Source: Arcobacteraceae bacterium (GTDB lineage: Bacteria > Campylobacterota > Campylobacteria > Campylobacterales > Arcobacteraceae). Taken from it: 63,359 bases of DNA. The position numbers and the translations under genes were made by a program. Positions 3,090-48,900 of the stretch are shown in pieces. The DNA lies in contig JAOZTH010000001.1 in the NCBI GenBank assembly GCA_029939245.1, positions 1-63,359 on the forward strand, given 5' to 3'. How positions within the stretch are numbered: position 1 is the first letter of the stretch; each line of letters begins with the position of its first letter. The notes beneath the pieces are model-generated. The model was not told the origin of the DNA. It searched no databases and worked only from the letters and a program-made list of their open reading frames with translations.

Positions 3090-3090
3090 A

Positions 3091-29181: not shown

Positions 29182-29543
29182 TAATCTTGGGCGATGATAG
29201 TATAGGATGCAAGCAAATCATGACTATAGAACGGTTTTCACAAGTTGATAATACTTCACCAGATGATATTGTCAAGCTAAACTTTGATATAGAGTTGCTA
29301 GAAAAACTATCTACAAATGATATAGAGTGTCTAGTTGTAGCAAACAGTATATATGAAGTAGTGTATGCAAACACACTAAAAGCCGACTATATTTTAGTGC
29401 CAGAAAATATCACAACACAAGCACAAAATATAGCCGATAACTATATGTTTGATAGCAAAATAATCGTCAGTATATCAAACAAAAAACAACTTGAGGTATA
29501 TGCTATAGAAGGTATAGATGGAGTTGTTTTTGAAACATCTTAA
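29169..29543 (+). CDS. Hypothetical protein
   Basis: 124-aa ORF with a GTG start overlapping the previous stop. No motif recognised, and the start is uncertain. Confidence 0.35.
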   Translation: MSSLIILGDDSIGCKQIMTIERFSQVDNTSPDDIVKLNFDIELLEKLSTNDIECLVVANSIYEVVYANTLKADYILVPENITTQAQNIADNYMFDSKIIVSISNKKQLEVYAIEGIDGVVFETS

Positions 29544-29682: not shown

Positions 29683-29691
29683 TGATATAAT
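29683..29691 (+). promoter_or_regulatory. Candidate extended -10 (TGaTATAAT) upstream of the giant lipoprotein operon
   Basis: tgatataat lies 18 nt upstream of the ATG at 29709, and the AAAGGAGA RBS sits at 29697-29704. No transcript data. Confidence 0.35.
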
Positions 29692-29708
29692 ACATAAAAG
29701 GAGAAATT

Positions 29709-32700
29709 ATGAAAAATATTTTTAGATTAAAATCCATATGGTTGGCAATACTTTTGTTACTATTTTTATCTGGTTGTGAGATAGGCAATATCAAAACAGC
29801 TACCACTATAGAAGGGCGAGTAGCCAAAGGGGCGGTATCAGGTGCTGTGGTGACGGCATACAAGGCTGGCACAACAGAGAAAATAGGCACTGCTACTACA
29901 GATGTCAATGGATATTATGAGCTATATAGCGATCTATTTTATGATGGAGTAGTATATATAGAATCTGTTGGTGGGACATATACAGATGAGCTTACCAATA
30001 CACCAAACAAAGATGCCGGTCTGTTTAGCTTGACAGCATTGTCAAAAGTAGGAACAAATGATGGATATGTTGTAAACATCACACCATATTCTACCATATC
30101 ACACAAAAAAATGCTAAATGATGGAGAAGATATAACATCTGGAGCTGTTGTGACAAAATACAACAAAGCTATATCAGATATATTTGTAGGCAATAGCTTT
30201 GATATCACTAAAACTACACCAAACTTACACAATGATCCTACAGATGATAGTTTAGATTCTGCAGATGCAGAAGAATACGGCTTTATGTTGAAAGCATTTG
30301 TAGATATGACAGCTTCAAATGAAGCAAATGTAGATGCCAAGATAGATTCCATAGCAGGAGCTATCACTAGTGTAGAAAACATGACTATCACAGATGCTAT
30401 GGCAGATGAGATCATAGCATCGTTTGCAAAACCTGCAGTTCAGACAGAGATGACATCTGGTGAGATAGCGGATATAAACAAAACTATCAACGATGCGAGA
30501 GACATAAAGCTACCAGATATCAGCGGTTCTTTAGCTACGATAACTGGAGAGTATAACACTACTATAGCAACATGGACACCAGTATTGGCTGCTACAGGTG
30601 GGATATTGGATAGATGTGAGATATCTCCCGATATTACTGCAAGCTATGGTCTTGAGTTTAACACTACAACATGTGTAATATCTGGCAAACCTAATAAGCA
30701 AGGTGCAGATACATTTGCTATAACTCCAGTTAATTTCAAAGGAAAAGGAAAATTCTTTCGGTTGAGCTTGGATATAAATGCTTCGGACCAAGCGGCATTT
30801 TCACTTGATGGACCTGTGGTATTTGAAGAAAATGCCACAAACTATATCCAGACAACAGTAGGTGGAAGCTGTGGAGTTGGTGGAACATACAAGTTTGAGT
30901 TAAACGATACTGCAGTAGCTAGCATAGTGGTAGCTACTGGCGAGATAGATTTCAAAGCACCTGGCTCTATAGAGGTCAAGGCGACTCTGAGCTGTGCCCA
31001 ATACAATGATATCAACGCTACTAAAACAATAACAGTCCATGAAGTAGCTCCAAATATAACCAACAGTATAGTAAATATAAGAGGTAAGCTACGAGAAAAT
31101 ATAAGTTGGGAAGTAAATAACACTGGAGGCAGTATAGCTAGTTGTGCTATAACTCCTAGTGTTGGGACATATGGACTTGATTTTAATCTAACCACATGTG
31201 AGATATCTGGTATCCCAACATCTACAGAACTAAGAGCAGCAGGTGCCAATATACAGATAACTGCTACAGGATCTGCAGGTGGCAATAGTGTCAAGACGAT
31301 AAACCTAAAGATAGACAAAGCAACACAAAAACCACCTGTAAGTATAGGTCCAAACCAACCATGCACCACTGGAGAAAGATTTCGGCTAGTTGCCACAGGT
31401 GGCAACAGCACAGTAGTAGGATATGGCTATGTCTCAAGTCATCCACTCATAGCAGCAGTAGATGCTAGTGGTTGGGTAGATTGTCTCACAAATGGTGAAG
31501 CAAATATCACTGCTACAAGGACAGGCGATGTAAATCATATTGACAGCGAGGACAACTATACAGTAAGTGTAGGTCTAGTTCCGCCAAATATCAACAACCC
31601 TCAAACTACTACGGGTATATATGGACAAACAATCAACTGGGAAGTCAACAACACAGGTGGACTTATAGAAAGCTGTGTGATAAGCCCATCTGACTTAACC
31701 ACAAAATATGGTCTAGTATTTAGCCAGACTGATTGTAATATCACAGGTGTACCCACAGCAACAACTGTCGGTGATGTGTCATTTACTATAAAAGCGGTCA
31801 CAGCTACTAGAGGCAACAGCACCAAAAATATACATATAATCATAGACAAGGAAGAGCAAAATCCATATGGATTTGATACAAATCTCACTTTGACGGTAGG
31901 ACAAATAAGTCCAAAACAACTTGACCATATAGGTAATACAACTGTCGCATCAACATATACTAGTGAAGATGAAACTATAGCGATAGTCAATATAAACTCA
32001 GGAGCTATCACCAACACATTGAAAGCTGGCAATGTAACTATAGTCGCTAGAAATGTAGGCGACACAAACTTCAAGTCAATAGATGCAAACTATACATTGA
32101 CAGTCTTGGCAACAGACCCAAATATCACAAGTCCTTTTGATATAGCTACTGACTACAACAAAACAATCAGCACAAACTGGGTGCCAAACAGCTCTACAGG
32201 TGGAGCTATAGAAACCTGTGAGATATTGCCGTTATTTGCAGCAAACAGTGGTATGGAATTTAACACTACTACATGTGAGATAAGCGGAACTCCACTATAT
32301 GTAGACGAAGGTGGAACTCCATATACAATCACAGCGAAAAATAAAGCCGGAGCAGGTAGCGATACAGCGGTGGTAAATATAACTATAGCCAAAGCAACAC
32401 AAGCTGAACTCATCATACCTATAGCACATGTCACAGATACTTTAGCAGATGGTTGGCACAAACAAAATATCACAGGTGGCACTGGCACTGGCAATATCAC
32501 ATTTACAGGCACGATACCAAGTGTAATAGATGTCAACAGAACCACAGGAAATGTCACATATAGTGCCACTATTGCAAACACAGAGATCACAGTCTTGAAA
32601 GCTAGTGATAATTTCTACAAAGAGATATCAAAGAAATATAGGTTAACCGTAGGAGATTTCAAGCCAGAGATTGGTGCATCTGTAGCTACGATAGTAGCAT

Positions 32701-34136
32701 TGTATGGCGAAGCTAACTCAACCATGTGGCAAGCCAAAAACGATGGAGGCGACACAACTGTGCCATATACATCTCTAGATACACTTCCTGGTGGCTTGAC
32801 TATAAGTGCTAGTGGTGTGATAGGTGGCATACCTACAGCAGTGCAGGGTGTTAGCTCATATACTATAGTGGCGAAAAATGATTCTGGCAATGATACCTTT
32901 GATGTGCAAATTATAGTAAACAAAGGAAGTCAAAATCTATTTAGATTTACAGATGGCGACAGACAAGGCAACAAAGGCACAGGCTATACATATGAAGTCA
33001 ACAATACCCAATCAGACGGAGCATTGACATATAGTTCAAGCGATATTAGCAAGGCAGAAGTGACAGATGTGGGAGTAGTGACTATAAAATCAGATGCAAC
33101 TCCTGGCAATGTAACTATAATCGCTCACAATGTTGGCAATACAAACTTCGACAAAGCAGATACAAACTACACTTTACAAGTAGTGGATGTAGCACCAGAT
33201 ATCACAGGAGCTTTAGCTCCGTTGGTAGCAAGTTTCAATGAAGTCGTGAGCTATGAGCTCAATAATACAGGAGGCACCGTGACTGCTTGTGCTGTTTCTA
33301 GTGGAACTTTGCCAGCTACATTGACTATAGCCCCTACGGCAGATGGTAGCACATGTGTGATCACTGGCACAGTGTCAGAGGTAAAAGGATTGTTTAACTA
33401 TACATTCCAAGCACAAAATAGTGCAGGAGACGCTAGCACAAAAGAGCTAGAGATCACTACTATAAAAGCAGATCAAACTGGCTTTACAATATATGGTGAC
33501 CAAGAGATTGCCAAAACTATAACAGACTTTAGACAAGCAGCAACAGGCGGTAATACAACCGTGCCTATAATATACACTTCTAGCAACGACACTATAGCAC
33601 AAGTAGATGCGACCGGTTTGATAATACCTCACATAGCAGGAGACGTCAATATAACTGGCACAAGACCAGGTGGTGCAAGCCCAGCTACCGCAAACTACAA
33701 CGATATAAACGATAGTTATCAGTTAACCATATTGGATACTGTATTTCCTATCGTTGACTATATATTATCTACACCGGGAAACACTACAACAGATGCAAAT
33801 GCTACAGGAAACATAACTATAGTTTGGAGCGAACCAGTCAGAAAAGTAGATGGCAAAAATATTGAGATACGAAGCAAAGGTGCGACAGGACATACAAAAG
33901 GTTTCAGCACTACTTTGCTCACTATAAATGGCGAGACAAATGTGACTTTATCTATGGGGACTGGACATCTGAGTTATGGCGAGGAGTATTATGTCGTCAT
34001 AGAGGCAGGTGGCTTTGAAGATATGGCAGGCAATGACAATGTGGCACATGGAGGAGATGGGACGTGGAATTTCACTGTGCCAACACAGACTGGCGATTGT
34101 GCCTATGATTGTATAGACAATTGTGATAATTATTAA
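29709..34136 (+). CDS. Giant surface lipoprotein 1. Order: CarboxypepD_reg-like N-module, about 6 x (He_PIG-like + Big_2-like) Ig domains, Big_5/SbsA-like domain, Cys-rich tail.
   Basis: 1475 aa with lipobox LLFLSGC, then IEGRVAKGAVSGAVVTAYKAG…TDVNGYYEL. The recurring modules are …W(E/D)VNNTGG.I.SC.I.P…GL.FN.TTC.ISG.P… and …(S/T)S.D.TIA.V…G.V…G.V.ITA…. It ends GDCAYDCIDNCDNY. Confidence 0.85.
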   Translation: MKNIFRLKSIWLAILLLLFLSGCEIGNIKTATTIEGRVAKGAVSGAVVTAYKAGTTEKIGTATTDVNGYYELYSDLFYDGVVYIESVGGTYTDELTNTPNKDAGLFSLTALSKVGTNDGYVVNITPYSTISHKKMLNDGEDITSGAVVTKYNKAISDIFVGNSFDITKTTPNLHNDPTDDSLDSADAEEYGFMLKAFVDMTASNEANVDAKIDSIAGAITSVENMTITDAMADEIIASFAKPAVQTEMTSGEIADINKTINDARDIKLPDISGSLATITGEYNTTIATWTPVLAATGGILDRCEISPDITASYGLEFNTTTCVISGKPNKQGADTFAITPVNFKGKGKFFRLSLDINASDQAAFSLDGPVVFEENATNYIQTTVGGSCGVGGTYKFELNDTAVASIVVATGEIDFKAPGSIEVKATLSCAQYNDINATKTITVHEVAPNITNSIVNIRGKLRENISWEVNNTGGSIASCAITPSVGTYGLDFNLTTCEISGIPTSTELRAAGANIQITATGSAGGNSVKTINLKIDKATQKPPVSIGPNQPCTTGERFRLVATGGNSTVVGYGYVSSHPLIAAVDASGWVDCLTNGEANITATRTGDVNHIDSEDNYTVSVGLVPPNINNPQTTTGIYGQTINWEVNNTGGLIESCVISPSDLTTKYGLVFSQTDCNITGVPTATTVGDVSFTIKAVTATRGNSTKNIHIIIDKEEQNPYGFDTNLTLTVGQISPKQLDHIGNTTVASTYTSEDETIAIVNINSGAITNTLKAGNVTIVARNVGDTNFKSIDANYTLTVLATDPNITSPFDIATDYNKTISTNWVPNSSTGGAIETCEILPLFAANSGMEFNTTTCEISGTPLYVDEGGTPYTITAKNKAGAGSDTAVVNITIAKATQAELIIPIAHVTDTLADGWHKQNITGGTGTGNITFTGTIPSVIDVNRTTGNVTYSATIANTEITVLKASDNFYKEISKKYRLTVGDFKPEIGASVATIVALYGEANSTMWQAKNDGGDTTVPYTSLDTLPGGLTISASGVIGGIPTAVQGVSSYTIVAKNDSGNDTFDVQIIVNKGSQNLFRFTDGDRQGNKGTGYTYEVNNTQSDGALTYSSSDISKAEVTDVGVVTIKSDATPGNVTIIAHNVGNTNFDKADTNYTLQVVDVAPDITGALAPLVASFNEVVSYELNNTGGTVTACAVSSGTLPATLTIAPTADGSTCVITGTVSEVKGLFNYTFQAQNSAGDASTKELEITTIKADQTGFTIYGDQEIAKTITDFRQAATGGNTTVPIIYTSSNDTIAQVDATGLIIPHIAGDVNITGTRPGGASPATANYNDINDSYQLTILDTVFPIVDYILSTPGNTTTDANATGNITIVWSEPVRKVDGKNIEIRSKGATGHTKGFSTTLLTINGETNVTLSMGTGHLSYGEEYYVVIEAGGFEDMAGNDNVAHGGDGTWNFTVPTQTGDCAYDCIDNCDNY

Positions 34137-34146
34137 GGAGAAAAAG

Positions 34147-37100
34147 ATGAAAAAGATAATAAAAAATTTTATACTTGTAGCACCAATGCTATTGGTATTG
34201 TTTACTGGTTGCGGAGAAAAAGGAACCGAAGGAGCTATAACTACTGGCATGGTTATAGAAGGACGAGTAGCAAAAGGCTCTATAGATGGTGCGACAGTAG
34301 AAGCATATAGGACAGATACTGAAGAGTCTATAGGTTCTAGCACTACAGATAGTCAAGGATACTACAAGATAAATACTTCATTGAATTATACCGGAGTAGT
34401 TAGATTGACATCAAATGGTGGTAGCTTTTTGGATGAACAAACAGGAAACAAACTTGATGCTAGTGCTTTTGAGCTTCAAGCGGCATCATACACTCCTGGT
34501 GAAAGTCTCAAGACCATCAATATTACGCCATTTTCCACTGTATCGTATAAAAAACTACTAGCAGATGGCAGAGACAAAACTTCACAAGAAGTTATTACTA
34601 AATACAACAAAGCCATAGCAGAGATATTTGTAGGAAATAAAGATATAGAGATAACAGATTTAAATCCAAACATTTCAAATGACTCAAGCGACAACCACTT
34701 AACTAGTGAAGACCAAAAAAATTATGGTGCGGTGTTGGCTATATTTTCAAATATGATACTAAATGTCCCAGGTTTGGCAACTACAGAGATAGACAATATG
34801 GTAGATAAAATATCAAATATAGAGTATGCGACTATAGACAGGGAATTAGCCACACATATACAGCAATATGTAGCTGGAGTCAATACTACAAATGAAGATA
34901 TAAACAGTAGCAGAGATGATGTCAATGCCAGTATAGAAAAAGCAGTATTCTCTCTAGTGCCAGATATAAGTCGTTCGGAAGTAAATCTTGACTACAATAT
35001 AGACGAAAATAGCACAAAAATATCGTGGATACCTACTACAAAAGAAGAAAATATCACAAGATGTGTCTTGAGCCCTAGTGGTGTAGTTATAGCAGACTAC
35101 AACCTAAGTTTCAACCCTATCACATGTGAAATATCTGGCGAACCAAATGCTACTCATAGTGGTGCCGATATAATCATAGTGCCATCAAATCCTAGAGGCG
35201 ATGGCACACCATTTCGTCTAAATTTCAAGATAGATAGGATAGTTCAAGTTCCGATCGTATTTGACCCTGACAATAAAACTGATTTTAATATCACAGATGC
35301 TAACTTTGATTTTGATATAACAGGCGGAACTTGTGCTCATGTATCTACTACGAGATTTACTTCTAGCGATACAACAATAGCAGAAGTAAATGCCACTACA
35401 GGAGAAGTCAATGTGACTGCAACTGGCACATTTACTCTCACCGCTACAAAAACTTGCAGCGAGGATTATCTAGCAGAAGAGGTATCAAAAGATATGACAG
35501 TGCTACAGATAATACCAAACATAACTACAAGTATGGATATAAATGCAACTCTATCTCAAGTGATGGCTTGGAATGTGAATAATACAGGTGGTTCTATAGA
35601 TAGTTGTGTTATAGATACAAATATAAAAGCGCTTTATAACCTTGATTTCAATCAAACAACATGTGCTATAACAGGAGAGCCAAATGCTACAAATATACCA
35701 GGTGGCATAGATGTCACTATCACTGCTACAAATACACGAAGCATAAGTGCTGAAGTTATCCATCTGCTTATAAACAATGCACCAAATATAAACAATCCAC
35801 AAATCACCACAGGTATATACAATCAACCTGTGGTATGGGATGTGAACAATACAGGCACAAGCACAGGAGCTATAACAAGCTGTGAGATAACGCCAAATAC
35901 ATTAAAAGCAGACTACGATCTCGACTTTAGTCAAACAACATGTCAAATCACAGGTGAAGCAAACAGGACAACTGCAGGCGACAACAGCTACACTATCACA
36001 GCTAAGAACTCATCTGGCAATAGCACTAAAAATATCAATATAGTTATAGACAGATCGCCACAAGACCCGATACTATTTGACCCAGATACAAAAGATGAGT
36101 TCAATCTAACCGATGCGGATTTTGACTTTGATATAACTGGCGGAAACTGTAGTCATGTAGAAACAGTTGTATTTGGTTCAAGCAACACAACTATAGCAGA
36201 TGTCAATATTACTACAGGAGTAGTAGATATAAAAAATATCGGCGACTTTAATCTAACAGCGACAAAAACTTGTAGTGAAAACTATCTACCTACTTCTGTA
36301 TCGAAACCTATGGTTGTCCACAATGTCATACCAGATATAACCAACGACAACAATATCACTACAGAATACAATGCCACTATAGTTGCATGGACTCCATCAA
36401 ATACAGGTGGAGTTATAACTGGATGTAGATTAGACCAAGATATACACAATATGTATGGTCTAGACTTCAACAACACTACATGTGCTATATCAGGCGAGTC
36501 AAATGCAACAATACCAGGCGGTATTAATGTGGGAGTTATAGCTAGCAATGCTATAAACGATAGCAACAGAATTGTGTTGAACTTGATTATAAATAAAGCT
36601 ATTCAAAATCCTATAGTAAATATGACAAACAGCAATGCCAACTGCTTCAAAGGAACATCACCAACAATACACAAAGATGCTACAGGCGGGAGTAGTTTGT
36701 TTGATTATAACTATACATCCAACGATTTAACCACAGCTACAGTTGACCCTGTTACTGGTATAGTCAGCTGTGTAGAGTTTGGCGAGGCAAATATCACTGC
36801 TACAAAAGCTGAAGATGACAATTGGCTTGCAAGTAGCCACTATTATACTATAGTTGTATCAAACAATACTCCAAATATAGACAATCCACAAAATACCACA
36901 GGAGTATACAATGAACCAGTTGTGTGGGATGTCAACAACAGCGGTGCCGATGTAGGACCGATAGAAAGCTGTGAAATATCTCCTAACACTTTGAAAGCTA
37001 CATACAATCTAGACTTTAATCAATCAACATGTCAGATCACTGGTGTACCAAATGCCTCAACTGCAGGAGATAGCACATGGACTATAAAAGCTATGAATAC

Positions 37101-39432: not shown

Positions 39433-39464
39433 CTAGATTATAGTAGTCATAAAACAAACAGCAT

Positions 39465-39492
39465 AAACCCCAAAATAAATTTGGGGTTTATT
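39465..39492 (+). terminator. Rho-independent-type terminator after the giant lipoprotein genes
   Basis: Perfect 10-bp stem AAACCCCAAA/TTTGGGGTTT with a 5-nt loop, followed by ATT. Confidence 0.6.
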
Positions 39493-39527
39493 GGCACAGA
39501 ACAGTGAGTTTAACTCAAAAGGAAAAT

Positions 39528-40403
39528 ATGAAAAACTCTGTAGTGTTGCCATTTGTGCTTATGTTTGTGATGTCGTTTTCTATGCTTGTGATAAATTTTG
39601 TAGATGATACTAGCCATATCATAGAGCAAAATCCATACCAAGACATAATCATATCAAATACTGCAATAAACTCTATCAAGACAACTATAGTGACAGCTCT
39701 AGCACCATATAGCAAAGTTCCAGATGAAGAGGTGCTAGCTATGCTAGCAAGTATAACAATAACAGATAATAAAAATATGATGACGATGTCAGTAGATATC
39801 CAAAAAGCCCCCATGCTTATAGATATCAATCATATGTTTGTATATGACAAAATTTTTAAACAATGGAAACTCAAAGAAAGCATAAGAGCTTGGCTGTTGG
39901 ATGCATTGAGCTTGAGGTTTGAATTAAATGAACCATACTACCTCATAATGCTACTTGAAAACACTTTAAATCACAACAGTGAGATAGTTTCAGAAAACTT
40001 TAGATATAATGAAGGAAAAATATATAGTTTGAAACATTTTTACAAAACTGTGGATTATTATAAATATTTTACAAGTGATGATATGATAGATAAAATACAA
40101 TTTGAAAATATGTTTAGTTTTGATGATACAAATGAGACAATGTATTGTGACGATATGACAGAAACTATATCTAAGCTAGTATCAGATGAGTATGATACAG
40201 ATGATTCTGGGATAGATTGCGAGAGTCCTACAGCTAGCGTCAAGAAAAAATTAGATAGTTTAGGTATAATAAGCGGAAATGATAAAACTTCACAAAAGGT
40301 CATAGGGACAGTGAGTTTCACATCAAACAGCAAAGTAAAAGTAGCAAACTTTGCGTATGATTTTACAAAAAAGGAGATAGTAAGTTTTGATATTCGGTTC
40401 TAA
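39528..40403 (+). CDS. Membrane-anchored protein of unknown family; first gene of the T2SS-like operon (possible GspK-type analog)
   Basis: ATG 39528 lies behind the RBS AAAAGGAAAA. An N-terminal hydrophobic segment (NSVVLPFVLMFVMSFSMLVINFV) is followed by about 265 aa that includes an acidic patch. No conserved motif recognised. Confidence 0.5.
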   Translation: MKNSVVLPFVLMFVMSFSMLVINFVDDTSHIIEQNPYQDIIISNTAINSIKTTIVTALAPYSKVPDEEVLAMLASITITDNKNMMTMSVDIQKAPMLIDINHMFVYDKIFKQWKLKESIRAWLLDALSLRFELNEPYYLIMLLENTLNHNSEIVSENFRYNEGKIYSLKHFYKTVDYYKYFTSDDMIDKIQFENMFSFDDTNETMYCDDMTETISKLVSDEYDTDDSGIDCESPTASVKKKLDSLGIISGNDKTSQKVIGTVSFTSNSKVKVANFAYDFTKKEIVSFDIRF

Positions 40404-41229
40404 TACAAACAGCCAAGATCACTTTTTTTTGGATAAAAGCACCAAAGAGTTTGCAACCCACCATGTCAATGTTATTCTTTCTCCTAGTTTTTATTGGACC
40501 AAACTACAAGAACTGCCAGTGCTTACGGTATATGGTGCACGAGAATATTCTACTTCTGTATTTGAAGGTTTATTACCAGAGGGCAACTGGACATATTTTG
40601 TGCAAAAAGAGGACAAAAATCTATATAGATTTTTTGCTTTTGATCAAGATGAGCTTTTGGATTTTATAGAATCTATAGGTGGCGACAAACAATATGTTCG
40701 CTCTTTGTATTTTGCACAAAATGAGTTTTCTGATATATTAGATGAAGAGCAAACAAAATTTGTATCAATAAATGATGATAAATGTATGACAAAAGTTCAA
40801 GACACTTTAGTATTGATCCCCAAAACTATGGTATCAAATAGCGAATATATATACGATGTCATAAACGATGTATCCCTATCAAGCAATAATATAAAAATAG
40901 ATACCAACATAAGTATAAATACAGATATATTTATGGTATTTGTAGTTGTGGGGCTGATATTTTCGCTTGGGTTTATCATAAATATAATAACCTACAATAT
41001 TGAAATTGCAAAACTAGAAAACAAGACAATAGAAAAAATCAAAACTCTCAAGCTACCAGAAACATCGTTTGAGTTAGATGCTATAGCCACACAAAGTTCT
41101 GCAAAGATAAAAGACCAGATAAATATAAGAAAAAATATCAAACAAATAAGCACCATAAAAACGACACAATATGGAAAAATAAAAAAAATAAAAATAACAA
41201 AAGATAAGTTGTCTGTATATGACAAATAA
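40387..41229 (+). CDS. gspL: GspL-like assembly-platform protein (bitopic)
   Basis: 280 aa. The N-terminal cytoplasmic region (VILSPSFYWTKLQELPVL…AREYSTSVFEGLLPEG…YRFFAFDQDEL) resembles the GspL consensus. It has a single central TM (IFMVFVVVGLIFSLGFIINII) and a short C-domain. Confidence 0.45.
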   Translation: MIFGSNTNSQDHFFLDKSTKEFATHHVNVILSPSFYWTKLQELPVLTVYGAREYSTSVFEGLLPEGNWTYFVQKEDKNLYRFFAFDQDELLDFIESIGGDKQYVRSLYFAQNEFSDILDEEQTKFVSINDDKCMTKVQDTLVLIPKTMVSNSEYIYDVINDVSLSSNNIKIDTNISINTDIFMVFVVVGLIFSLGFIINIITYNIEIAKLENKTIEKIKTLKLPETSFELDAIATQSSAKIKDQINIRKNIKQISTIKTTQYGKIKKIKITKDKLSVYDK

Positions 41230-41605
41230 AAATAAAAATTATCTACTCATAGCTTTTGTAGTTGGCTTTGTGTTGCTGTTTGTAACAACAAACAAATATG
41301 AAACTAAAAAAGATGAAGCTATAGCAAGATACACCAAGATGCAAAAAATACTTTCTGATATTGAACAAAATAAAGATAAGTTTACATATGAAAAAACCAA
41401 GGCTATCTTAAACTCTTCTATATTTAAGCAATATATTCAAACACGAACAAAAGACAACTTGACTACTATAGTATTTAATGCTCCTTTGAAAGTGGCAAAT
41501 GCTTTCATACGAAAAATCGCAAATTCGGATTCGTTGCTTGGTGAAATAGAGATACAACAGATTGACAAAAGAGTCAAAATCATAATCAGGATAAAAAATG
41601 GATAA
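41219..41605 (+). CDS. gspM: GspM-like small bitopic protein
   Basis: 128 aa with an N-terminal TM and a C-terminal alpha/beta region (…TTIVFNAPLKVANAFIRKI…VKIIIRIK). Its position after the GspL-like gene supports the call. Confidence 0.4.
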   Translation: MTNKNKNYLLIAFVVGFVLLFVTTNKYETKKDEAIARYTKMQKILSDIEQNKDKFTYEKTKAILNSSIFKQYIQTRTKDNLTTIVFNAPLKVANAFIRKIANSDSLLGEIEIQQIDKRVKIIIRIKNG

Positions 41606-42182
41606 TATAAAAGCTATTTTGTCGCTGGTTGCAAGCAGGATAAAAGGACTGGAAAGTCTACAAATAGGCTCTGGAGTTAAGCTGTTGATATACAGCTTTT
41701 TGACTCTGTTTTTTATAGTTTTTTTATCTCCCAAAAAACAGCTATATTTTTATCTTGAGGAAAAACTACAGACAAATAATATCATAATATACCAAGAAAA
41801 GATAGAATCGCTAAACACAGGAATATGGCTAAAAGATGGGCTAGTCTCTTATGATAAAATATTTATAGGATTGTTTAGCGATATCACTATAAATACATAC
41901 TACTTCAAAACAAATCTTATAGTCCATAGCTTTTTGATAGACAAAGATTTTGAAACCTTTGTGCCATCGCAAGTAGAGAAAATAGAGTTGTCTCATAGTT
42001 TTTTGAGTCCGTTAAATGTGCTTATAGAAGCAAAAGGAGAGTTTGGAGAGCTGACTGGAAGTTATGATTTTATAAGCAGCAAACTCACATTAAATCTAAA
42101 ACCAAGCGATATAATGAAGACAAAAAAAGCATCCCTAAAGCTTATGACAAAAACAAAAGATGGATATATATATGAGAAATAG
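41598..42182 (+). CDS. GspN-like bitopic protein (tentative)
   Basis: 194 aa with one TM (LLIYSFLTLFFIVFLS). Assigned mainly from position between the M-like and C-like genes. Confidence 0.3.
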   Translation: MDNIKAILSLVASRIKGLESLQIGSGVKLLIYSFLTLFFIVFLSPKKQLYFYLEEKLQTNNIIIYQEKIESLNTGIWLKDGLVSYDKIFIGLFSDITINTYYFKTNLIVHSFLIDKDFETFVPSQVEKIELSHSFLSPLNVLIEAKGEFGELTGSYDFISSKLTLNLKPSDIMKTKKASLKLMTKTKDGYIYEK

Positions 42183-42951
42183 AGGTTTGTTGGCAAATAG
42201 CATGTTGATTGTAGCTTTGATATATCTTGTTATGTCTATTCTCAAGATATTTTTACCTATATCATCTGTAGAACTACAAAAAGATATTGATTTTAATTTT
42301 GCATTTAACTACTCTTTACAAAATATCTATAAAGATAAAATAAAGAAAAAAGATAGTCAAAACAGATCTAGTATGAGTTTTGAGCTCATAGGAATATATA
42401 GTGATGGAAACAATAGTGTAGTCATCATAAGCAAAGACAAAAGAACGGAAGTCATAGCTGTAGGTGAAGTGTTTGAAGGCTTTAAGCTAACTGGCACTAC
42501 AAGTATATTGGCAATATGGGACAAAAATGGTATAAGACATGAGCTATCTATAGAAGACACTAGAGACAGAGAGATAAGGAATTCTTATAAAATAGAAAAT
42601 GAAGATCCTCTAGCAACTAGAGATATAAAATACACAGATATACAGTATTATAAAAATAATCCACAGAAACTATGGGATGAAATAAATATAAATAAAACAA
42701 AAAATGGCTATATGATTACTAAGATAAAGAAAAATTCCAAACTTTCTACATTGGGATTGAAAAATGGTGATATCATAAAAGTAGTAAATGGCAAAGAGCT
42801 TATAAATGATAGTGATGCTATAAAACTCTACAAAGATATAAAGAGTGCAGAGTTTGTCACTATCACAGTGCTAAGAGATGATAAATATATAGATATAGAT
42901 TTTAATATAAAAGGAACACAAACGATGACACAGCCACCAAAATTACAATAA
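42160..42951 (+). CDS. gspC: GspC-like protein (TM + HR-like domain + PDZ)
   Basis: 263 aa. An N-terminal TM is followed by FELIGIYSDGNNSVVIISKDKRTEVIAVGEVFEGFKLTG (HR-like) and a PDZ-like region, GYMITKIKKNSKLSTLGLKNGDIIKVVNGKEL. Confidence 0.6.
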   Translation: MDIYMRNRGLLANSMLIVALIYLVMSILKIFLPISSVELQKDIDFNFAFNYSLQNIYKDKIKKKDSQNRSSMSFELIGIYSDGNNSVVIISKDKRTEVIAVGEVFEGFKLTGTTSILAIWDKNGIRHELSIEDTRDREIRNSYKIENEDPLATRDIKYTDIQYYKNNPQKLWDEININKTKNGYMITKIKKNSKLSTLGLKNGDIIKVVNGKELINDSDAIKLYKDIKSAEFVTITVLRDDKYIDIDFNIKGTQTMTQPPKLQ

Positions 42952-43056
42952 GTATAGAAAAAAAAGATAAATAAAGAAAAAAAAGATATAATGAGATAAA
43001 TAAATGAAAAATAAAAATATTTCAGCAAATAATAGCAAAACACAAGAGGAAAATTC

Positions 43057-45255
43057 ATGAACAAGATACTTAAAATTTTGATAACGCTTATGTTGATGAG
43101 TGTATCTTTGTCTAGTAGAGACACAGTAGATATAAACTTCAAGGGTCTAAACATAAGAGATTTTGTAAAAATGGTAGCAAAAATCAAAAATGAAAATATC
43201 CTAATAGGCAACAAACTAAGCGGTAGTATAAACTTTATATCGGTCAAGCCAATACCAAAAAAATCACTCATGGTGTTGCTCAACCATGTATTGGAAACCA
43301 AAGGCTTCACGCTGATTCGTACTGGACATAGATATCTAAAAGTTGTCAAGATTGAAGATGCAGGCAGGTCTGGACTGCCTGTAAATACTACACAAGATAC
43401 TTTTCAAATAGTTACAGAGATTATTGAAGTAGATGGTATGAATGTGGATTTGCTTGTGACTAAACTAAGACACCTAGTAACCAAAAACTCAAAAATAACT
43501 ACTTCAAAAGAGACAAATGCATTGATAGTCACGGATTATCCAGAGAAAATCAAAAGTATAAAAAAGATTATAAACCTACTAGCTAGCAAAAGTCAGCTTA
43601 AAACAAAAGTGATAAGACTAGAACATATAAAAGCAGATGTGATAGGTCCAGATATACAGAAGATCACGAAAAATTTATTTGACCCAAAAATAGCCAAAAA
43701 CAACTTAGATATCATCATCAACAACAAGACAAATACTATAACTCTTGTAGGACGGCAAACACAGATAGACAAAGTAGCCGAGCTTATACACAATGCCGAC
43801 AATCAAGATGACAAATCATCTATAGTCATGGAAGTAATACCTATCAACAATAGTAGTGCCGAAGAGATGATAAAAATTTTGGAAAAATTTTATGCTACAA
43901 AAGGCAAAAATGTAGTATATCAGCCTAGCTTTATGAATGACAAAGAGCTCAACTCCGTCATAGTTCGTGCTAGAAAAAGAGATATAGATGATATACGAGA
44001 TGTTATCTCAAAGCTAGATATACCAAAACCACAAGTGTTTGTAAAGGCAAGGATAATAGAGATATCCGATGAAAAAGCTAGTGATATAGGATTTAAATAT
44101 GGTTTGAGTGGTGGCAAGGTAACTAGCGATGGACTCATGACCATGAGTGCAAATATGGGCGGACAAGCTATTGCGGTAGATAGTACGCTTATGAGTTATA
44201 TAGATATAGATACAAACTTGAAAGATTTTTTTGCACTTGGAGCTACATTGTCGTTGTTGCAAAGAGATGGAGCAGCTGAAGTGCTAAGCGAACCGTCACT
44301 GCTTTGTCTAAATAACAAAGAGTCAGAGATATATGTAGGAAATACCCAATCAGTCGTAACCTCTACAGCACAAGGCACTACTAGCACATCTGATACTACA
44401 AACAGCTACAAAAGAGAAGATATAGGACTAACCCTCAAGATAAAGCCACGACTCTCAAGCGACAATAAAGTCACACTTGAAGTAGAGACTATCATAGAAG
44501 ATGTGCTAGGATCAGACAGCAACGGACAGCCCATAACCACCAAAAGAACAGTCAAAACTACTGCCATAGTAAATGATGCAGAACTAGTCATGCTAGGTGG
44601 TCTAAACAAGACAAAAGAGACCACAAGTGTATCAAAAGTTCCTTTGTTGGGTGATATACCACTACTTGGAGCATTGTTTAGAAGCACAAATAAAACCATG
44701 TCAAAAACATCTTTAGCTATCATGCTAACTCCGTATATTATAGACGAAAACAGAAACATAAGTAAACTAAGAAATGATTTGAATATGTTAGCATTAGCTC
44801 AAGATGACTACACCACTAAAGCTATGGCTATACTTGACAATGGAGATGTGCGAGAAGTTAGACTAGAAAATAGAAAAGCCAAAAATACAAAAAATACAAA
44901 TACAAAACCAAAAAACTTCATAAAACGAACAAGCCCGCAAGCACAGCAAAGGTATTACAATAACCAAAAAACCTACAAAAAGAAAAAAATCAAGACAAAA
45001 AAAACTCAAAAAAAATCATATGGAGGCAAATATAATATATATGTAGGTAAGTATTTTAGCTTTAGTGAGATTAAAGAGATAAGAAATGATAAGACAATAA
45101 ATACAAACACAGATATGAAACTAAACTATGATGGTAAAAATGTATTTGAAGTTAGTGTTGGTCCATATAGGACTATGAAAAAAACTAAAAAAGTATTGAA
45201 GTATATCAAAAAGAAATACAACGATGATGCCTATATAGAAGATAAAACAAAATAG
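43057..45255 (+). CDS. gspD: Secretin (GspD family) with a Lys-rich linker and a C-terminal SPOR-like domain
   Basis: 732 aa. It has a signal peptide, N0 (DINFKGLNIRDFVKMVA…), N1-N3 repeats and a secretin core (VFVKARIIEISDEKASDIGF… VPLLGDIPLLGALFRS). The tail carries YNIYVGKYFSFSEIKEI…FEVSVGPYRTMKKTKKVLKYIKKKYNDDAYI. Confidence 0.9.
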   Translation: MNKILKILITLMLMSVSLSSRDTVDINFKGLNIRDFVKMVAKIKNENILIGNKLSGSINFISVKPIPKKSLMVLLNHVLETKGFTLIRTGHRYLKVVKIEDAGRSGLPVNTTQDTFQIVTEIIEVDGMNVDLLVTKLRHLVTKNSKITTSKETNALIVTDYPEKIKSIKKIINLLASKSQLKTKVIRLEHIKADVIGPDIQKITKNLFDPKIAKNNLDIIINNKTNTITLVGRQTQIDKVAELIHNADNQDDKSSIVMEVIPINNSSAEEMIKILEKFYATKGKNVVYQPSFMNDKELNSVIVRARKRDIDDIRDVISKLDIPKPQVFVKARIIEISDEKASDIGFKYGLSGGKVTSDGLMTMSANMGGQAIAVDSTLMSYIDIDTNLKDFFALGATLSLLQRDGAAEVLSEPSLLCLNNKESEIYVGNTQSVVTSTAQGTTSTSDTTNSYKREDIGLTLKIKPRLSSDNKVTLEVETIIEDVLGSDSNGQPITTKRTVKTTAIVNDAELVMLGGLNKTKETTSVSKVPLLGDIPLLGALFRSTNKTMSKTSLAIMLTPYIIDENRNISKLRNDLNMLALAQDDYTTKAMAILDNGDVREVRLENRKAKNTKNTNTKPKNFIKRTSPQAQQRYYNNQKTYKKKKIKTKKTQKKSYGGKYNIYVGKYFSFSEIKEIRNDKTINTNTDMKLNYDGKNVFEVSVGPYRTMKKTKKVLKYIKKKYNDDAYIEDKTK

Positions 45256-46479
45256 ATGACATACAAATATACGGGTGTTGACAAGCAGTTCAAAAAAGTT
45301 TCTGCCACGATAGAAGCAAACAGTCTAAATGAAGCCAAAAAAACTCTAAAACAAAGTGGAATAATATTTAACTCTATAAAAGTTCAACAACAAAACAGCC
45401 TTGAGTTTATGTCTGTTCTTTGGACAAAAGAGCTAAGCAAAAAAGAGCTATCTACACTCAGTAGAGATCTGAGTTTTTATATCAAATCTGGCATCAATAT
45501 ATCAAGTGCCTTGAAGCTAGCAATATCACAATATAGCGATTCTAAAAAGATTAAAAATTTTTTAAGTGAAGTAAGCAGATATATAGATGAAGGCAAGGAT
45601 TTTGCTACATCGCTAAGTATTCAAAAACAGATAAAGCTTCCTCAGTTTTATGTGCAAAGTATCAAAGCATCACAAAACGGCGGTATGCTAGATAGTGTGT
45701 TGATGGAGTTGTCTACATTTATATCAAATCAAGACAAAATACAAAAGAAAATATCAAATGCCCTAGCATATCCTATGTTTATAGTCATAAGTGCTATACT
45801 TATGGTAGCATTTATGCTAAGCTACGTAGTGCCAAAGGTCGTAGGTATATTTGAACAAAACAAACAAGAGCTACCACTCATCACCAAATACGTGCTAGCT
45901 TCTAGTGATTTTGTAGGTGACTACTATGTGATAATATTGGTGCTAGTGGTTTCTGCTGTATTTACGGTAAAATATCTAAACAAAATATCAGCACATTTTC
46001 GTTATTCTTATGATGGTATAATCCTAAAGTTACCACTCTTTGGTCCTATCATACTTATAAGCGAGTTATCACGTTTTAGCTATATGTGTTCGTTGCTTTT
46101 ACGCTCTGGTATGACTCTAGTAGAGACAGTCAAACTCTCTTCGCAACTTTTAGACAATGTAGTCCTAGCCCGGATATTTGACGATAGTTCTACTTTTGTA
46201 GTCCAAGGTGGCAAACTCTCCTCTTCGTTGATGAACAAAAATATAGATGTGCTTCCTAAAAGTTTCATCCAATCTATTGCTTTGGGCGAAGAGACTAGTA
46301 TGCTGGAAACTGTGCTTTCTACTCAAGCAGTGCGGTTTGACGAAGACAACAGCGACAAGATAACTTTCATGCTCTCGCTTTTGGAACCTATCATGATGCT
46401 CGTAGTTGGCACTATCATCGCTATAATCGTCCTAGCTATGATGTTGCCTATCTTTTCTATAAATATAGGAGGAATGTAG
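45256..46479 (+). CDS. gspF: Type II secretion / type IV pilus platform protein GspF/PilC family
   Basis: 407 aa with the duplicated T2SSF domain architecture and 3 TMs. The ATG directly abuts the secretin stop. Confidence 0.9.
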   Translation: MTYKYTGVDKQFKKVSATIEANSLNEAKKTLKQSGIIFNSIKVQQQNSLEFMSVLWTKELSKKELSTLSRDLSFYIKSGINISSALKLAISQYSDSKKIKNFLSEVSRYIDEGKDFATSLSIQKQIKLPQFYVQSIKASQNGGMLDSVLMELSTFISNQDKIQKKISNALAYPMFIVISAILMVAFMLSYVVPKVVGIFEQNKQELPLITKYVLASSDFVGDYYVIILVLVVSAVFTVKYLNKISAHFRYSYDGIILKLPLFGPIILISELSRFSYMCSLLLRSGMTLVETVKLSSQLLDNVVLARIFDDSSTFVVQGGKLSSSLMNKNIDVLPKSFIQSIALGEETSMLETVLSTQAVRFDEDNSDKITFMLSLLEPIMMLVVGTIIAIIVLAMMLPIFSINIGGM

Positions 46480-46868
46480 TGAATAGATCATTTTTGCTTA
46501 TTGAGGCTATCATGGCTATCGTTATATTGTCATTTTCTCTTGTAGGTTTGTTGCAGTTAAATAGTACAACTATTGATATGTTGGCATTTGTATCTAGTAG
46601 AAGTTCACTATATCAAGATGCATCGTTAGTCAGTCAAACTATCACAAAAGACCACAACAAAAAAATAAAATCAGCCTACGATATAGTATCAAAAAGATAC
46701 AATATAGACAACTTAGATGTCAAACAAGCTTTGTCAAAAGATAAATATACTATAAAAGTAGAAGACTATTCACAGCTTGTGTTTGCCGATATATTTACGA
46801 TAGATATACAAAAGATATCACTCTCAAATAAAAAAAATAAAATACAAATGTATAAACTAAAACCATGA
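46479..46868 (+). CDS. Pseudopilin-like protein (non-canonical leader)
   Basis: 129 aa. MNRS/FLLIEAIMAIVILSF gives a class III-like signal with Glu at +5 but Ser at -1. Confidence 0.55.
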   Translation: MNRSFLLIEAIMAIVILSFSLVGLLQLNSTTIDMLAFVSSRSSLYQDASLVSQTITKDHNKKIKSAYDIVSKRYNIDNLDVKQALSKDKYTIKVEDYSQLVFADIFTIDIQKISLSNKKNKIQMYKLKP

Positions 46869-47389
46869 CTATACATAAGATATCTACATTTACAATCATG
46901 GAGCTTATCGTCTCGGTTATGATCATAGGTATGATATTTGTGTTTTCGTTTCAAGTGTTTAACTATACCAAAACAAACCAAAACAATATAAATAGATCTA
47001 TCAAAAAAAACTCTACAGACAGTATGAAGATAAAGCTAATATATATGGATATGGTCAACACAAAGAAAAAGTTGGAGATAGACAATAAGTTTAATCAAGA
47101 TTTGGATATAATATATCTACAGACAACAAACTCTATGTATAAGCGGGATTATAGCTTTGTAGTCTATAAAGTAGTAGATGCAAAGTTATATAGAGTTGAA
47201 TCAAGCAACAAACTAAGAGACGATAAGTTTGGTATGAAAAAGGATATTGATATGTTATTTGATAAAGTGGAGATATTTAAGGTGTATGAAAACACAACAA
47301 AACAAAACAAAACACAAGTATCAAAAAGTAAGCTGGTGTTTTTAAAAACAGAGACAAATACTATAAGATTTGAGGTAGCAGGTATATGA
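46865..47389 (+). CDS. Pseudopilin-like protein (non-canonical leader)
   Basis: 174 aa. MTIHKIST/FTIMELIVSVMIIGMIF has Glu at +5 but Thr at -1. Confidence 0.55.
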   Translation: MTIHKISTFTIMELIVSVMIIGMIFVFSFQVFNYTKTNQNNINRSIKKNSTDSMKIKLIYMDMVNTKKKLEIDNKFNQDLDIIYLQTTNSMYKRDYSFVVYKVVDAKLYRVESSNKLRDDKFGMKKDIDMLFDKVEIFKVYENTTKQNKTQVSKSKLVFLKTETNTIRFEVAGI

Positions 47390-48900
47390 TAAAAATATCA
47401 CAACTAAACAACATGGACTTCGAACCTGTATGGATAGATAATATAGATATGGCTATAGCCATAAAGTATTTTGCTCTGTTTAGTAAAAAAAATGATGATA
47501 CAATCATAGTGCTGACACCAATTCATATAAAGGAAGCTTTGGAGTTTTTATCAAAAGTAGAACTAAACTATGAGATATATCTAACAGATGAGATAAGTTT
47601 CGAAAGACTGCTTAACAAGTTTCTGGAAATCCGCACAGAAAAATCTATGGCAAAAGAAGAAAATGCCGAGTTGTCTATAGATACAGACGAAGAGGAGCTG
47701 GAGCTAAAAGAGTTTTTACAAACAAACCAAGACCTGTTAAACAGCGAAGATGCGGCTCCTGTCATAAAGCTGGTAAACTCTATATTTTATCAAGCTATCA
47801 AAAAAGATGCCAGTGATATACATATAGAAGTGCACGAAAAAAAGGGCGAAATACGGTTTCGTATAGATGGGGCATTGAACAAATATATGGATCTAGACAA
47901 AAAAATAACTCAACTAGCCATAAGTCGTATCAAGGTAATATCTAGTCTGGATATATCTGAAAAAAGAGTGCCACAAGATGGTAGAACACAAGTGACTATC
48001 GCTAGCAAAAAGCTAGACATAAGAGTCTCTATATTGCCTACATATTATGGCGAGAGAGTGGTCATGCGGATACTCATGGAAAGTAGCGATATACCGTCTA
48101 TGGAGCAGCTGGGATTTAAAAAAGATTTGATGGACAAGGTTTATCCACTTTTGGAGCACTCACATGGTATGATACTAGTAACTGGTCCTACAGGAAGTGG
48201 AAAGTCCACGACTTTGCACTCATTTTTACAGCAAGTAACCTCGCCAAACTTAAATATCATCACCGTAGAAGACCCAGTAGAATACAATGCAGAAAATATC
48301 AACCAAGTCCAGACAAATGCCAAAGTAGATCTCACATTTGCATCGGCTCTTCGGTCGATATTAAGACAAGACCCCGATGTAGTGATGATAGGCGAGATGC
48401 GAGACAAAGAGACAGCACATATAGGAGTGCAAGCCGCTCTAACTGGGCATCTTGTGTTTTCCACTTTGCATACAAACACATCTACAGGAGCTATCACTAG
48501 GCTAGTAGATATGGGAGTGGAAGAGTTTTTGATATCTAGCTCGCTTCTAGGAGTGCTAAGTCAAAGACTAGTTAGAAAGCTATGTGTGCATTGTAAATCT
48601 ATAGACCTTGATGGTGACTTTTATAAAACAAAGTTAAACATAGATACAAAAATACAAACATACAAAGCCGTAGGGTGCAACCAATGCCACTTTACAGGAT
48701 ATAGTGGCAGAGTGGCTATAGGGGAGCTGTTTGTAGTAGATGAAGAGGTCAAAAAATTTATCAAAAAAGATCAAGAGGAGAGTGAATTGCGAAATTTTAT
48801 GAGAAAAAAAGGTATGACAACCATACAAGATAGGCTTGCAGACCTTATAGTAGACGGCACGACATCGTTTACCGAAGCACTGAGGATAGGGATACACTAG
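47386..48900 (+). CDS. gspE: Type II secretion ATPase GspE family
   Basis: 504 aa. It has an N-terminal T2SSE_N-like domain, Walker A GPTGSGKST, Asp/His boxes, and the tetracysteine motif CVHC…CNQC typical of GspE. Confidence 0.9.
   Translation: MIKISQLNNMDFEPVWIDNIDMAIAIKYFALFSKKNDDTIIVLTPIHIKEALEFLSKVELNYEIYLTDEISFERLLNKFLEIRTEKSMAKEENAELSIDTDEEELELKEFLQTNQDLLNSEDAAPVIKLVNSIFYQAIKKDASDIHIEVHEKKGEIRFRIDGALNKYMDLDKKITQLAISRIKVISSLDISEKRVPQDGRTQVTIASKKLDIRVSILPTYYGERVVMRILMESSDIPSMEQLGFKKDLMDKVYPLLEHSHGMILVTGPTGSGKSTTLHSFLQQVTSPNLNIITVEDPVEYNAENINQVQTNAKVDLTFASALRSILRQDPDVVMIGEMRDKETAHIGVQAALTGHLVFSTLHTNTSTGAITRLVDMGVEEFLISSSLLGVLSQRLVRKLCVHCKSIDLDGDFYKTKLNIDTKIQTYKAVGCNQCHFTGYSGRVAIGELFVVDEEVKKFIKKDQEESELRNFMRKKGMTTIQDRLADLIVDGTTSFTEALRIGIH

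Follow-up and report, generated by a model that had tools for sequence, protein, structure and literature searches.

We analysed a 63,359-nucleotide stretch of chromosomal DNA (contig JAOZTH010000001.1, hereafter the window) from an uncultured marine Arcobacter-like bacterium (Arcobacteraceae, Campylobacterota). It carries two genes for giant lipoproteins made of immunoglobulin (Ig)-like repeats, A and B, directly upstream of an operon which very probably encodes a bona fide type II secretion system (T2SS), in a variant specific to Campylobacterota. The best single explanation of this arrangement is that A and B are among the substrates of the adjoining T2SS, a reading to which we give about even odds (probability around 0.5). 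As judged from sequence comparisons, the link between the lipoproteins and the machine is suggestive. An earlier note on this DNA had gone further and presented A and B as the dedicated cargo of the operon, which appears unjustified and unlikely in view of the results given below. All coordinates are positions in the window, and labels such as L001 and L003 designate the related contigs that were compared.

A divergent type II secretion operon

Ten genes of the plus strand, overlapping or abutting, run from 39528 to 48900 in the order X, GspL, M-like, N-like, GspC, GspD fused to a SPOR domain, GspF, two minor pseudopilins and GspE. The earlier note had read the same order; its names for GspC, GspD, GspF and GspE were supported by profile hidden Markov models (HMMs) and that of GspL by a predicted fold, while the X-, M- and N-like genes are placed by position and topology only. 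Among the profile searches which it had proposed, those for the secretin, T2SSE, T2SSF, PDZ/GspC, He_PIG and Big_2 families gave matches.

The secretin GspD (43057-45255, 732 amino acids (aa)) is predicted by HMMs to consist of an N0 domain, three Secretin_N domains, the secretin domain, a Lys-rich linker and a C-terminal SPOR domain at about residues 657-726. It matched the Pfam models type_II_gspD_N0, Secretin_N (three times) and Secretin, and reached 352.3 bits against the GspD model TIGR02517 (cutoff 351.35), to be compared with 207 bits for PilQ and 108 bits for HofQ. The SPOR domain scored only 16 bits in the window, below the cutoff of 21, and 33.5 and 31.9 bits in two orthologues, so that the SPOR fusion announced in the earlier note passes the threshold in the orthologues and remains sub-threshold here. 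The ATPase GspE (47386-48900, 504 aa) is full length, including its N-terminal region; it matched T2SSE with an E value of 2e-135, and scored 558.9 bits with TIGR02533 against 485 for PilB and 270 for ComGA. The inner membrane platform protein GspF (45256-46479, 407 aa) contains two T2SSF domains (E 3e-43) and its best NCBIfam model is GspF, with 300 bits. The scores of GspE and GspF lie under the strict equivalog cutoffs and over those of the PilB, PilC and ComG models.

The GspC-like protein (42160-42951, 263 aa, with a likely start at ATG 42172) has a transmembrane helix, an HR region and a PDZ domain, the layout of GspC, which is the T2SS-specific adaptor between secretin and cargo. The matches were weak and consistent with GspC: 28 bits for PDZ_2 (cutoff 27), 50.6 bits over residues 58-248 for TIGR01713, which is sub-threshold, and 63.5 bits for GspC_delta. 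The protein is shorter than its orthologues (301-317 aa), its low-complexity charged C-terminal tail being shortened by stop codons, and gspC is separated from gspD by an A-rich gap of 105 bp (42952-43056), whereas the two genes overlap in relatives. Between gspF and gspE, two minor pseudopilin-like proteins of 129 aa (46479-46868, MNRS/FLLIEA) and 174 aa (46865-47389, ...IST/FTIMEL) each have a class-III-like N-terminus with E5. The second one was aligned by hhalign with the N-terminal helices of GspG and GspJ (E 3-5e-4).

The product of the second gene (40387-41229, 280 aa) did not match any Pfam or NCBIfam family. Its predicted fold comprises a cytoplasmic actin-like domain, one transmembrane helix and a short periplasmic part. 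In an AlphaFold2 (AF2) model built from a 7-sequence alignment, residues 10-170 reached predicted local distance difference test (pLDDT) values of 80-92. Foldseek ranked GspL (4pht_X, E 7e-6), EpsL (1yf5) and PulL (5tkw) above FtsA and PilM, the E values of the three ranging from 7e-6 to 2e-4 and their TM-scores from 0.38 to 0.46. The model thus supports the assignment of this gene as GspL, whose actin-like domain binds GspE, and this assignment provides a means to annotate these divergent operons independently of the cargo question.

The first gene, X (39528-40403), stands at the start of the operon in all relatives and encodes a bitopic protein of 291 aa with an N-terminal hydrophobic helix devoid of E5. 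It had no match in Pfam, NCBIfam or the PDB, and its sole similarity, between its N-terminal helix and that of E. coli GspK (hhalign E 0.0065), makes a GspK-like minor pseudopilin possible. Only four relatives of X were found in 5.8 billion proteins, and the AF2 model built from a 4-sequence alignment was unusable (pLDDT 37.7). The M-like protein (41219-41605, 128 aa, with an N-terminal transmembrane helix) and the N-like protein (41598-42182, 194 aa, with one transmembrane helix and apparently beta-rich) had no homologue detectable by Pfam, NCBIfam, hhalign against E. coli proteins or a PDB-sequence profile search; we infer their equivalence to GspM and GspN from synteny and topology. When the alignments of X, L, M, N and the pseudopilins were compared by hhalign with the single E. 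coli K-12 sequences of GspC, G, H, I, J, K, L and M, only N-terminal helices matched. The operon is nevertheless best read as a T2SS, and not as a Cts or pilus machine, because of the HR/PDZ protein GspC, the GspL fold, the N0-N3 domains of GspD and the scores of GspD, GspE and GspF, which are all best with Gsp models.

Comparison with relatives defined a small clade of long secretins (720-753 aa, 57-88% identity), generic GspD proteins of Campylobacterota dropping to about 42%. The same 10-gene order was found in all members of the long-secretin clade (six lineages). The generic T2SS of Sulfurospirillum arcachonense (WP_024955740-44 with GspD, GspE and GspF) resembles the window by its X-L-M-N-C-D block, and RefSeq labels its X, L, M, N and C 'hypothetical protein'. 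In this species gspE follows the block and gspF follows gspE, and gspG with three short open reading frames (ORFs) lies divergently upstream. In L010, also generic, the block is likewise followed by gspE, then by two short pseudopilin-like ORFs, with no gspF within 10 kb. Because the X-L-M-N-C-D block is common to Sulfurospirillum, L010 and many metagenomic Campylobacterota, the order which the earlier note called scrambled and lineage-specific is the normal Campylobacterota layout; it is atypical only with respect to that of Klebsiella and E. coli. The generic systems differ from that of the window by a D-E-F order, by a secretin of about 600-670 aa without SPOR and, often, by gspG and pseudopilins located divergently upstream. 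The features specific to the long-secretin clade, as far as these comparisons go, are therefore the D-F-pseudopilin-pseudopilin-E order and the fusion of SPOR to the secretin. A SPOR domain on a T2SS secretin was predicted earlier in Legionella (PMC6617341). It is N-terminal in Legionella LspD, whereas in the window it is C-terminal, after the Lys-rich linker, at the place occupied elsewhere by the pilotin-binding S-domain; such a C-terminal SPOR secretin suggests a pilotin-free assembly anchored to peptidoglycan.

Two giant lipoproteins rich in N-glycosylation sequons

The genes for A (29709-34136, plus strand, 1475 aa) and B (34147-39432, plus strand, 1761 aa counted from an ATG, the mechanical ORF beginning at GTG 34123) encode proteins with the lipoboxes LFLSG/C23 and LFTG/C22, respectively. 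The earlier note had described both ORFs in the same terms, as paralogues starting with a lipobox, and the two sequences are 43% identical across about 1200 aa. Each protein contains an N-terminal module (residues 24-267, approximately, in A), a repeat array, a Big_5-type domain (about 1344-1460 in A) and a Cys-rich tail, C-x3-C-x3-C-DNY, starting at C1464 in A. Pfam detected He_PIG (E 7e-24 in A and 2e-23 in B) and Big_2 (1e-6 and 2e-15), and an in-house jackhmmer search showed that the two types of unit strictly alternate, with 6 He_PIG and 6 Big_2 units in A and 8 He_PIG and 7 Big_2 units in B. This alternation had been proposed in the earlier note and was directly verified. The CarboxypepD_reg-like and Big_5-like domains, also proposed, were not directly detected by Pfam in A or B at E<=0.1, and are supported through homologues. 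In the first case, 20 of 68 relatives of the N-terminal module match CarboxypepD_reg in Pfam. In the second, residues 1344-1473 of A align (E 1.5e-23) with residues 913-1038 of the relative P0167, which correspond to its Pfam Big_5 region; transitive homology thus supports a Big_5-type Ig domain ahead of the Cys tail.

The tail (...C..DC.DNCDNY) is found at the C-terminal end of both A and B. We considered that it might be a C-terminal sorting signal of the GlyGly-CTERM or PEP-CTERM kind and rejected this possibility, since in P0167 the C-x3-C-x3-C-D motif is internal, directly after the Big_5 domain and before a PEBP domain. The motif therefore caps the Big_5 domain and is no C-terminal sorting tag. 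Each Ig unit of A and B has its own cysteine pair, with a spacing of 19-22 residues in He_PIG and about 41 in Big_2, which implies oxidative folding in the periplasm.

Both proteins are acidic and rich in Thr and Asn, and both contain a large excess of D/E-x-N-x-S/T sequons: 26 in A against 2.3 in residue shuffles, and 44 in B against 4.4, which is about a tenfold excess. The density reaches 17.6 sequons per 1000 aa in A and 25 in B, compared to 1.3 in the other proteins of the window. More than half of all N-x-S/T sites in A and B have an acidic residue at -2, the position at which Campylobacter PglB prefers such a residue (PMC4894442). The He_PIG units contain a repeated W-[ED]-V-N-N-T-G-G motif in which many of these sequons lie, and the excess is retained in the A and B proteins of L001 and in the lipoprotein of L008 (L008:17207-21268). 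If they are modified, few bacterial proteins would be as densely N-glycosylated as A and B.

The nearest public relative of the window is contig JAOZMC010000002.1 ('MAG: Arcobacteraceae bacterium isolate GMC3_bin_14', a metagenome-assembled genome (MAG), hereafter the sister MAG). The A orthologue of the sister MAG is 59% identical and the B orthologue 78%, compared with 71-95% for the T2SS proteins, 90% for phosphoglucomutase and 96% for DnaE; A is the fastest-evolving gene of the region. A scan of A and B with NCBIfam models found no family. Among the matches listed in a search with full-length A, those beyond A and B themselves were the sister-MAG pair and generic He_PIG proteins, this search being insensitive enough to miss the L013 paralogues described below. 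The sequon excess, the fast divergence and the cysteine pairs are properties absent from the earlier note. The traits of A and B fit, short of proof, those of exported, folded, exposed and glycosylated surface proteins.

Are A and B substrates of the adjoining T2SS?

The case for a substrate relationship starts from gene neighbourhoods. A B-type gene is located directly upstream of X in the window, in L001 and in L005, where the copy is fragmented. In L008, a member of the window's T2SS clade (secretin 57% identical), a small Lys-rich barrel protein of the outer membrane is encoded next after the operon, and then a 1353-aa lipoprotein with a Cadherin/Big_13 passenger, whose N-terminal 120-200 aa are homologous to the A/B module (HMM E 3e-40). 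At the generic T2SS locus L076, a 794-aa module lipoprotein comes directly after the D-E-pseudopilin genes. In the SPOR-secretin clade, adjacency was thus observed in two of four lineages, for a chance expectation that we roughly estimate to be well under 0.1.

Several observations weigh against this interpretation. The operon is flanked by unrelated genes, with no such lipoprotein, in L003/L004 (X 68% identical) and in L006/L007 (secretin 62% identical). In the sister MAG, two more giant paralogues lie between rseP and napA (L013, JAOZMC010000027.1, 1583-16639). One of them exceeds 2600 aa and is broken by an assembly gap, the other has 2235 aa, and both contain the module, repeats and C-x3-C-x3-C tails; no T2SS genes were found on the 20.6 kb retrieved of this contig. 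Around the module lipoproteins of L015, L098 and L099, no T2SS genes were seen within 10 kb. Of 80 generic Campylobacterota T2SS loci, with flanks adding up to about 370 kb, a single one has a module lipoprotein, close to what the background would give. Linkage of such lipoproteins to the T2SS, a comparison of the kind that the earlier note had suggested, was observed in the window, L001 and L005, and independently in L008 and L076, and was absent in L003, L006/L007, L013, L015, L098, L099 and 79 of the 80 generic loci; operons lacking such neighbours and giant paralogues away from any T2SS are what speaks against a dedicated cargo. On the machine side, the M-, N- and X-like proteins matched no protein of known function, and no GspG- or GspO-like gene was found in the 63-kb window, as the earlier note had already remarked, the sole prepilin-like N-termini being those of the two minor pseudopilin ORFs. 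A T2SSG-family major pseudopilin adjoins the operon in L008 and S. arcachonense, and the major pseudopilin and prepilin peptidase of this genome are presumably encoded elsewhere. No STT3/PglB family match was obtained among the scanned larger ORFs of the window. Finally, neither A (CEIGNIKT) nor B (CGEKGTEG) has the GGG or ND(N/D) motif after the lipidated Cys, although the rules of sorting may not be the same in all phyla. Since no signal is common to all T2SS substrates, cargo status cannot be confirmed by any sequence test.

It is quite possible, if on balance doubtful, that the adjacency is meaningless and that the T2SS exports soluble exoproteins in general, for instance the S8 subtilase encoded at 61078-63234. 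A and B would then follow another route, in which the small outer-membrane barrel encoded upstream of A might take part, and a variable region upstream of the operon would simply have received their genes in this sub-lineage. This explanation is favoured by the fact that the region upstream of the operon is different in every lineage (restriction-modification and toxin-antitoxin genes in L003, PBP2 in L006/L007, gspG in L008), by the giant paralogues elsewhere in the sister genome, by the location of most module lipoproteins away from T2SS genes and by the missing sorting motif. A TenI-like gene upstream of the lipoprotein, in L098 as in the window, may also point to an ancestral neighbourhood that had nothing to do with the T2SS. 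Chance adjacency has to account, however, for three independent events (the window clade, L008 and L076) that involve different passengers and different sides of the operon, and for the frequency in the SPOR-secretin lineages given above. Moreover, disulfide-bonded and probably glycosylated proteins of 150-190 kDa need a translocon for folded proteins, and no machine of this kind other than the T2SS is evident here.

An improbable alternative is that A and B are periplasmic, membrane-tethered glycoproteins serving as envelope spacers or scaffolds, with no secretion step. Many Campylobacter N-glycoproteins are indeed periplasmic or lipoproteins, A and B have no recognisable surface-export signal, and their N-terminal module has no known function. 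Yet an array of 14-17 Ig-like domains would reach much farther than the width of the periplasm, A diverges very fast, as exposed proteins typically do, and the passengers of the module family are adhesin-like (Cadherin, LRR, Big_x, F5/8-C). That the operon is a Cts-like DNA-uptake machine, such as the T2SS-like Cts proteins which serve transformation in Campylobacter, or a type IV pilus machine, is highly improbable: the lack of a major pseudopilin and of a peptidase in the window would fit, but GspC-like HR/PDZ and GspL-fold proteins are present, GspD passes the equivalog cutoff, GspE is the best ATPase match (559 bits, more than twice ComGA), the HofQ, ComGA and ComGB models, standing in for Cts sequences, score far below the Gsp models, no PilM/N/O/P, PilT or ComE genes are nearby, and relatives have a T2SSG-family pseudopilin next to the operon.

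If A and B are substrates of the adjoining T2SS, they would first be exported by Sec and lipidated, a step for which the lipobox is the basis. They would then fold in the periplasm, form disulfides and become N-glycosylated, as the cysteine pairs and sequons suggest. By analogy with known cases and in view of the adjacency, the T2SS would drive them through the secretin, and their acyl chains would keep these adhesin- or coat-like glycoproteins attached to the cell surface, in the manner of PulA, SslE and InvL. The T2SS is probably not dedicated to A and B, and would likely serve the other giant paralogues and soluble substrates as well. Should the link be real, this would be the first T2SS displaying giant, heavily N-glycosylated Ig-repeat lipoproteins and the first functional handle on the T2SS of Campylobacterota, whose L, M, N, C and X components diverge so strongly that RefSeq labels them 'hypothetical'; it would join lipidation, PglB glycosylation and T2SS export in one pathway. 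The significance is limited by an uncultured organism and a modest comparative signal.

Comparison with known systems

PulA, SslE and InvL have already established the principle of a lipoprotein substrate encoded next to its T2SS. Among known arrangements, the one closest to that of the window is the E. coli yghJ(sslE)-pppA-yghG-T2SS locus, and the closest known mechanism is the export of PulA and InvL with GspN. In E. coli, the gene of a giant lipoprotein of about 1500 aa is likewise located directly upstream of a T2SS operon in the same orientation (yghJ/sslE-pppA-yghG-gspC...M), and SslE is reported to be secreted and surface-anchored by its T2SS (PMC5012682, PMC3707838). SslE differs from A and B in being a single M60 metalloprotease without Ig repeats or N-glycosylation. 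Its operon (T2SS-beta) follows the classical order from C to M and also encodes a prepilin peptidase and a pilotin; in comparison, the adjacency seen in the window is not conserved past close relatives.

PulA of Klebsiella and InvL, an adhesin of Acinetobacter baumannii, are T2SS-exported surface lipoproteins (PMC7857515; PMC12802150). They share with A and B a lipobox, and a gene at the GspN position is found in the window operon too. Their export through GspD and their surface anchoring by acyl chains are proposed for A and B by analogy only. Roberts et al. reported that GGG or ND(N/D) after the Cys is required for GspN- and GspD-dependent lipoprotein display in A. baumannii, and similar motifs are present in Burkholderia and Shewanella cargos (PMC12802150). 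A and B, in contrast, have CEIGN and CGEKG at this place; InvL and PulA are also far smaller and have no tandem repeats, and their GspN is a recognisable AsmA-like protein, whereas the N-like ORF of the window has no detectable similarity.

With regard to architecture, A and B may be compared with other lipoproteins built from Ig repeats. LigA and LigB of Leptospira, which are surface adhesins, have many Big_2-type Ig domains in a row after a lipobox. They belong to another phylum and are without the He_PIG alternation, the module, the enrichment in PglB sequons and the T2SS adjacency. What is distinct here is the combination of giant, sequon-rich Ig-repeat candidates, unrecognisable L, M, N and X proteins, a C-terminal SPOR on the secretin, gspG and gspO located elsewhere and the absence of the published sorting motif.

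A lipoprotein family defined by the N-terminal module

The module of A and B, of about 200 aa, combines a CarboxypepD_reg-type beta-sandwich and a helical part, with the motifs GG.Y.DE.TG and NITP.T.IA. A profile of residues 24-300 of A and B retrieved 475 representative proteins at E<=1e-3 among 1.84 billion, of which 49 at E<=1e-10. The module nearly always starts at residues 21-50, in proteins whose length varies from 126 to 2681 aa, and at least 109 of the 148 module proteins examined are clear lipoproteins. Passengers include Big_12, He_PIG, Cadherin, LRR, PEBP and F5/8-C domains. The hosts belong to Campylobacterota, Vibrionaceae, Deltaproteobacteria and others, named examples being Photobacterium LRR lipoproteins and one Deltaproteobacteria MAG. 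NCBIfam has no model for the module and Pfam sees only its CarboxypepD_reg part, in the minority of relatives already mentioned. A scan of the genome collection with a 10-sequence alignment of the module yielded 4 loci. By these profile comparisons, the module defines a large uncurated lipoprotein family, sizeable enough to be worth describing whatever the answer to the cargo question.

Gly occupies P2' in 67% of the 109 module lipoproteins, and in 84% the positions P2'-P8' contain four or more G/S/N/D residues, against 28% in a crude control. This G/S/N/D-rich stretch after the Cys resembles the published sorting motif of T2SS lipoproteins. The module could then be an uncurated general handle for T2SS lipoprotein export or surface display, perhaps through the protein at the GspN position, although we consider this unlikely. 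If it were so, the window would show the use of the module for heavily N-glycosylated giant adhesins.

Transcription signals and small genes around A, B and the operon

An extended -10-like element (TGATATAAT, 29683-29691) and a ribosome-binding site (AAGGAG, 29698-29703), both on the plus strand and recognised by consensus match only, precede the gene for A. Between B and the operon, where a terminator with a 10-bp stem had been announced at 39465-39492, we found a plus-strand hairpin at 39463-39491 with a 12-bp stem, ending 36 nucleotides before the start of X. It has no U-tract on the plus strand and is therefore no canonical intrinsic terminator, so that the hairpin of the earlier note stands, but not as a terminator of that type. 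The hairpin is conserved: L001 has it with one compensatory pair, and L005 has a different stem. It could terminate transcription weakly, serve as an attenuator or stabilise the RNA. No obvious -10 was seen between the hairpin and X, and in L003, where the giant genes are missing, X is preceded by a TGTATAAT of its own. Since the hairpin has no U-tract and X lies so close behind it with no obvious -10, partial transcriptional read-through from B into the operon is plausible, and would be in line with a link between the lipoproteins and the T2SS.

At the other end of the operon, a phosphoglucomutase/phosphomannomutase gene (48900-50288) begins on the last base of gspE, a junction kept in L001 and L003. 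This gene may be co-transcribed with the T2SS genes and could provide sugar precursors.

Upstream of A, a plus-strand gene (28246-28968) encodes a small beta-barrel protein of the outer membrane whose N-terminal region is strongly rich in Lys (OMP_b-brl, E 3e-9). A protein with the same barrel layout is encoded between the T2SS and the lipoprotein in L008 (L008:16150-17217), with weak similarity to that of the window (E 0.001). One may speculate that the small barrel is an accessory or partner of module lipoproteins, or else a coincidence.

The interval directly upstream of A (28972-29543) contains the gene of a membrane protein of 69 aa, Cys-rich at its C-terminus, and a 124-aa TenI-like remnant. 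The latter ORF (29169-29543) was rejected as a part of the system: it corresponds to no called gene in the protein collection and has the appearance of a TenI-type remnant. A TMP-TENI gene likewise precedes the module lipoprotein in L098 (L098:8798-10011), possibly as a trace of an older neighbourhood.

Two further genes (25684-28195), located between dnaE and that of the barrel, code for a protein of 156 aa with a signal peptide, which looks LolA-like by eye, and for an MMPL/RND-like membrane protein of 684 aa. Both are kept in the sister MAG at 88-89% identity and neither has a Pfam or NCBIfam match. We rejected this pair as lipoprotein-specific export genes, position being the sole argument in their favour.

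Other features of the window and of related loci

The window has a GC content of about 36% and the gene content of a housekeeping stretch of chromosome, with genes for ribonucleotide reductase, RmuC, LigA, LptD, ParAB and DnaE upstream of the locus, and for phosphoglucomutase/phosphomannomutase, an amino-acid ABC transporter and acetyl-CoA synthetase downstream.

The S8 subtilase mentioned above (61078-63234, minus strand, 718 aa) has a proprotein-convertase P-domain and is a plausible soluble T2SS substrate. In S. arcachonense (L009), possible local T2SS substrates are encoded on both sides of the operon: signal-peptide proteins of 677 aa (Ig-like) and 575 aa upstream (2488-6250), and a 2017-aa RHS-repeat protein with a signal peptide downstream (15184-21237).

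An AcrB-family RND pump is encoded on the minus strand of the window by two adjoining ORFs in different frames, the N-terminal half at 3091-4638 and the C-terminal half at 1431-3089; a frameshift, a pseudogene or a sequencing error may explain this split (1431-4638). A gene for a KAP-family P-loop NTPase (55638-56747, minus strand) is located amid the housekeeping genes.

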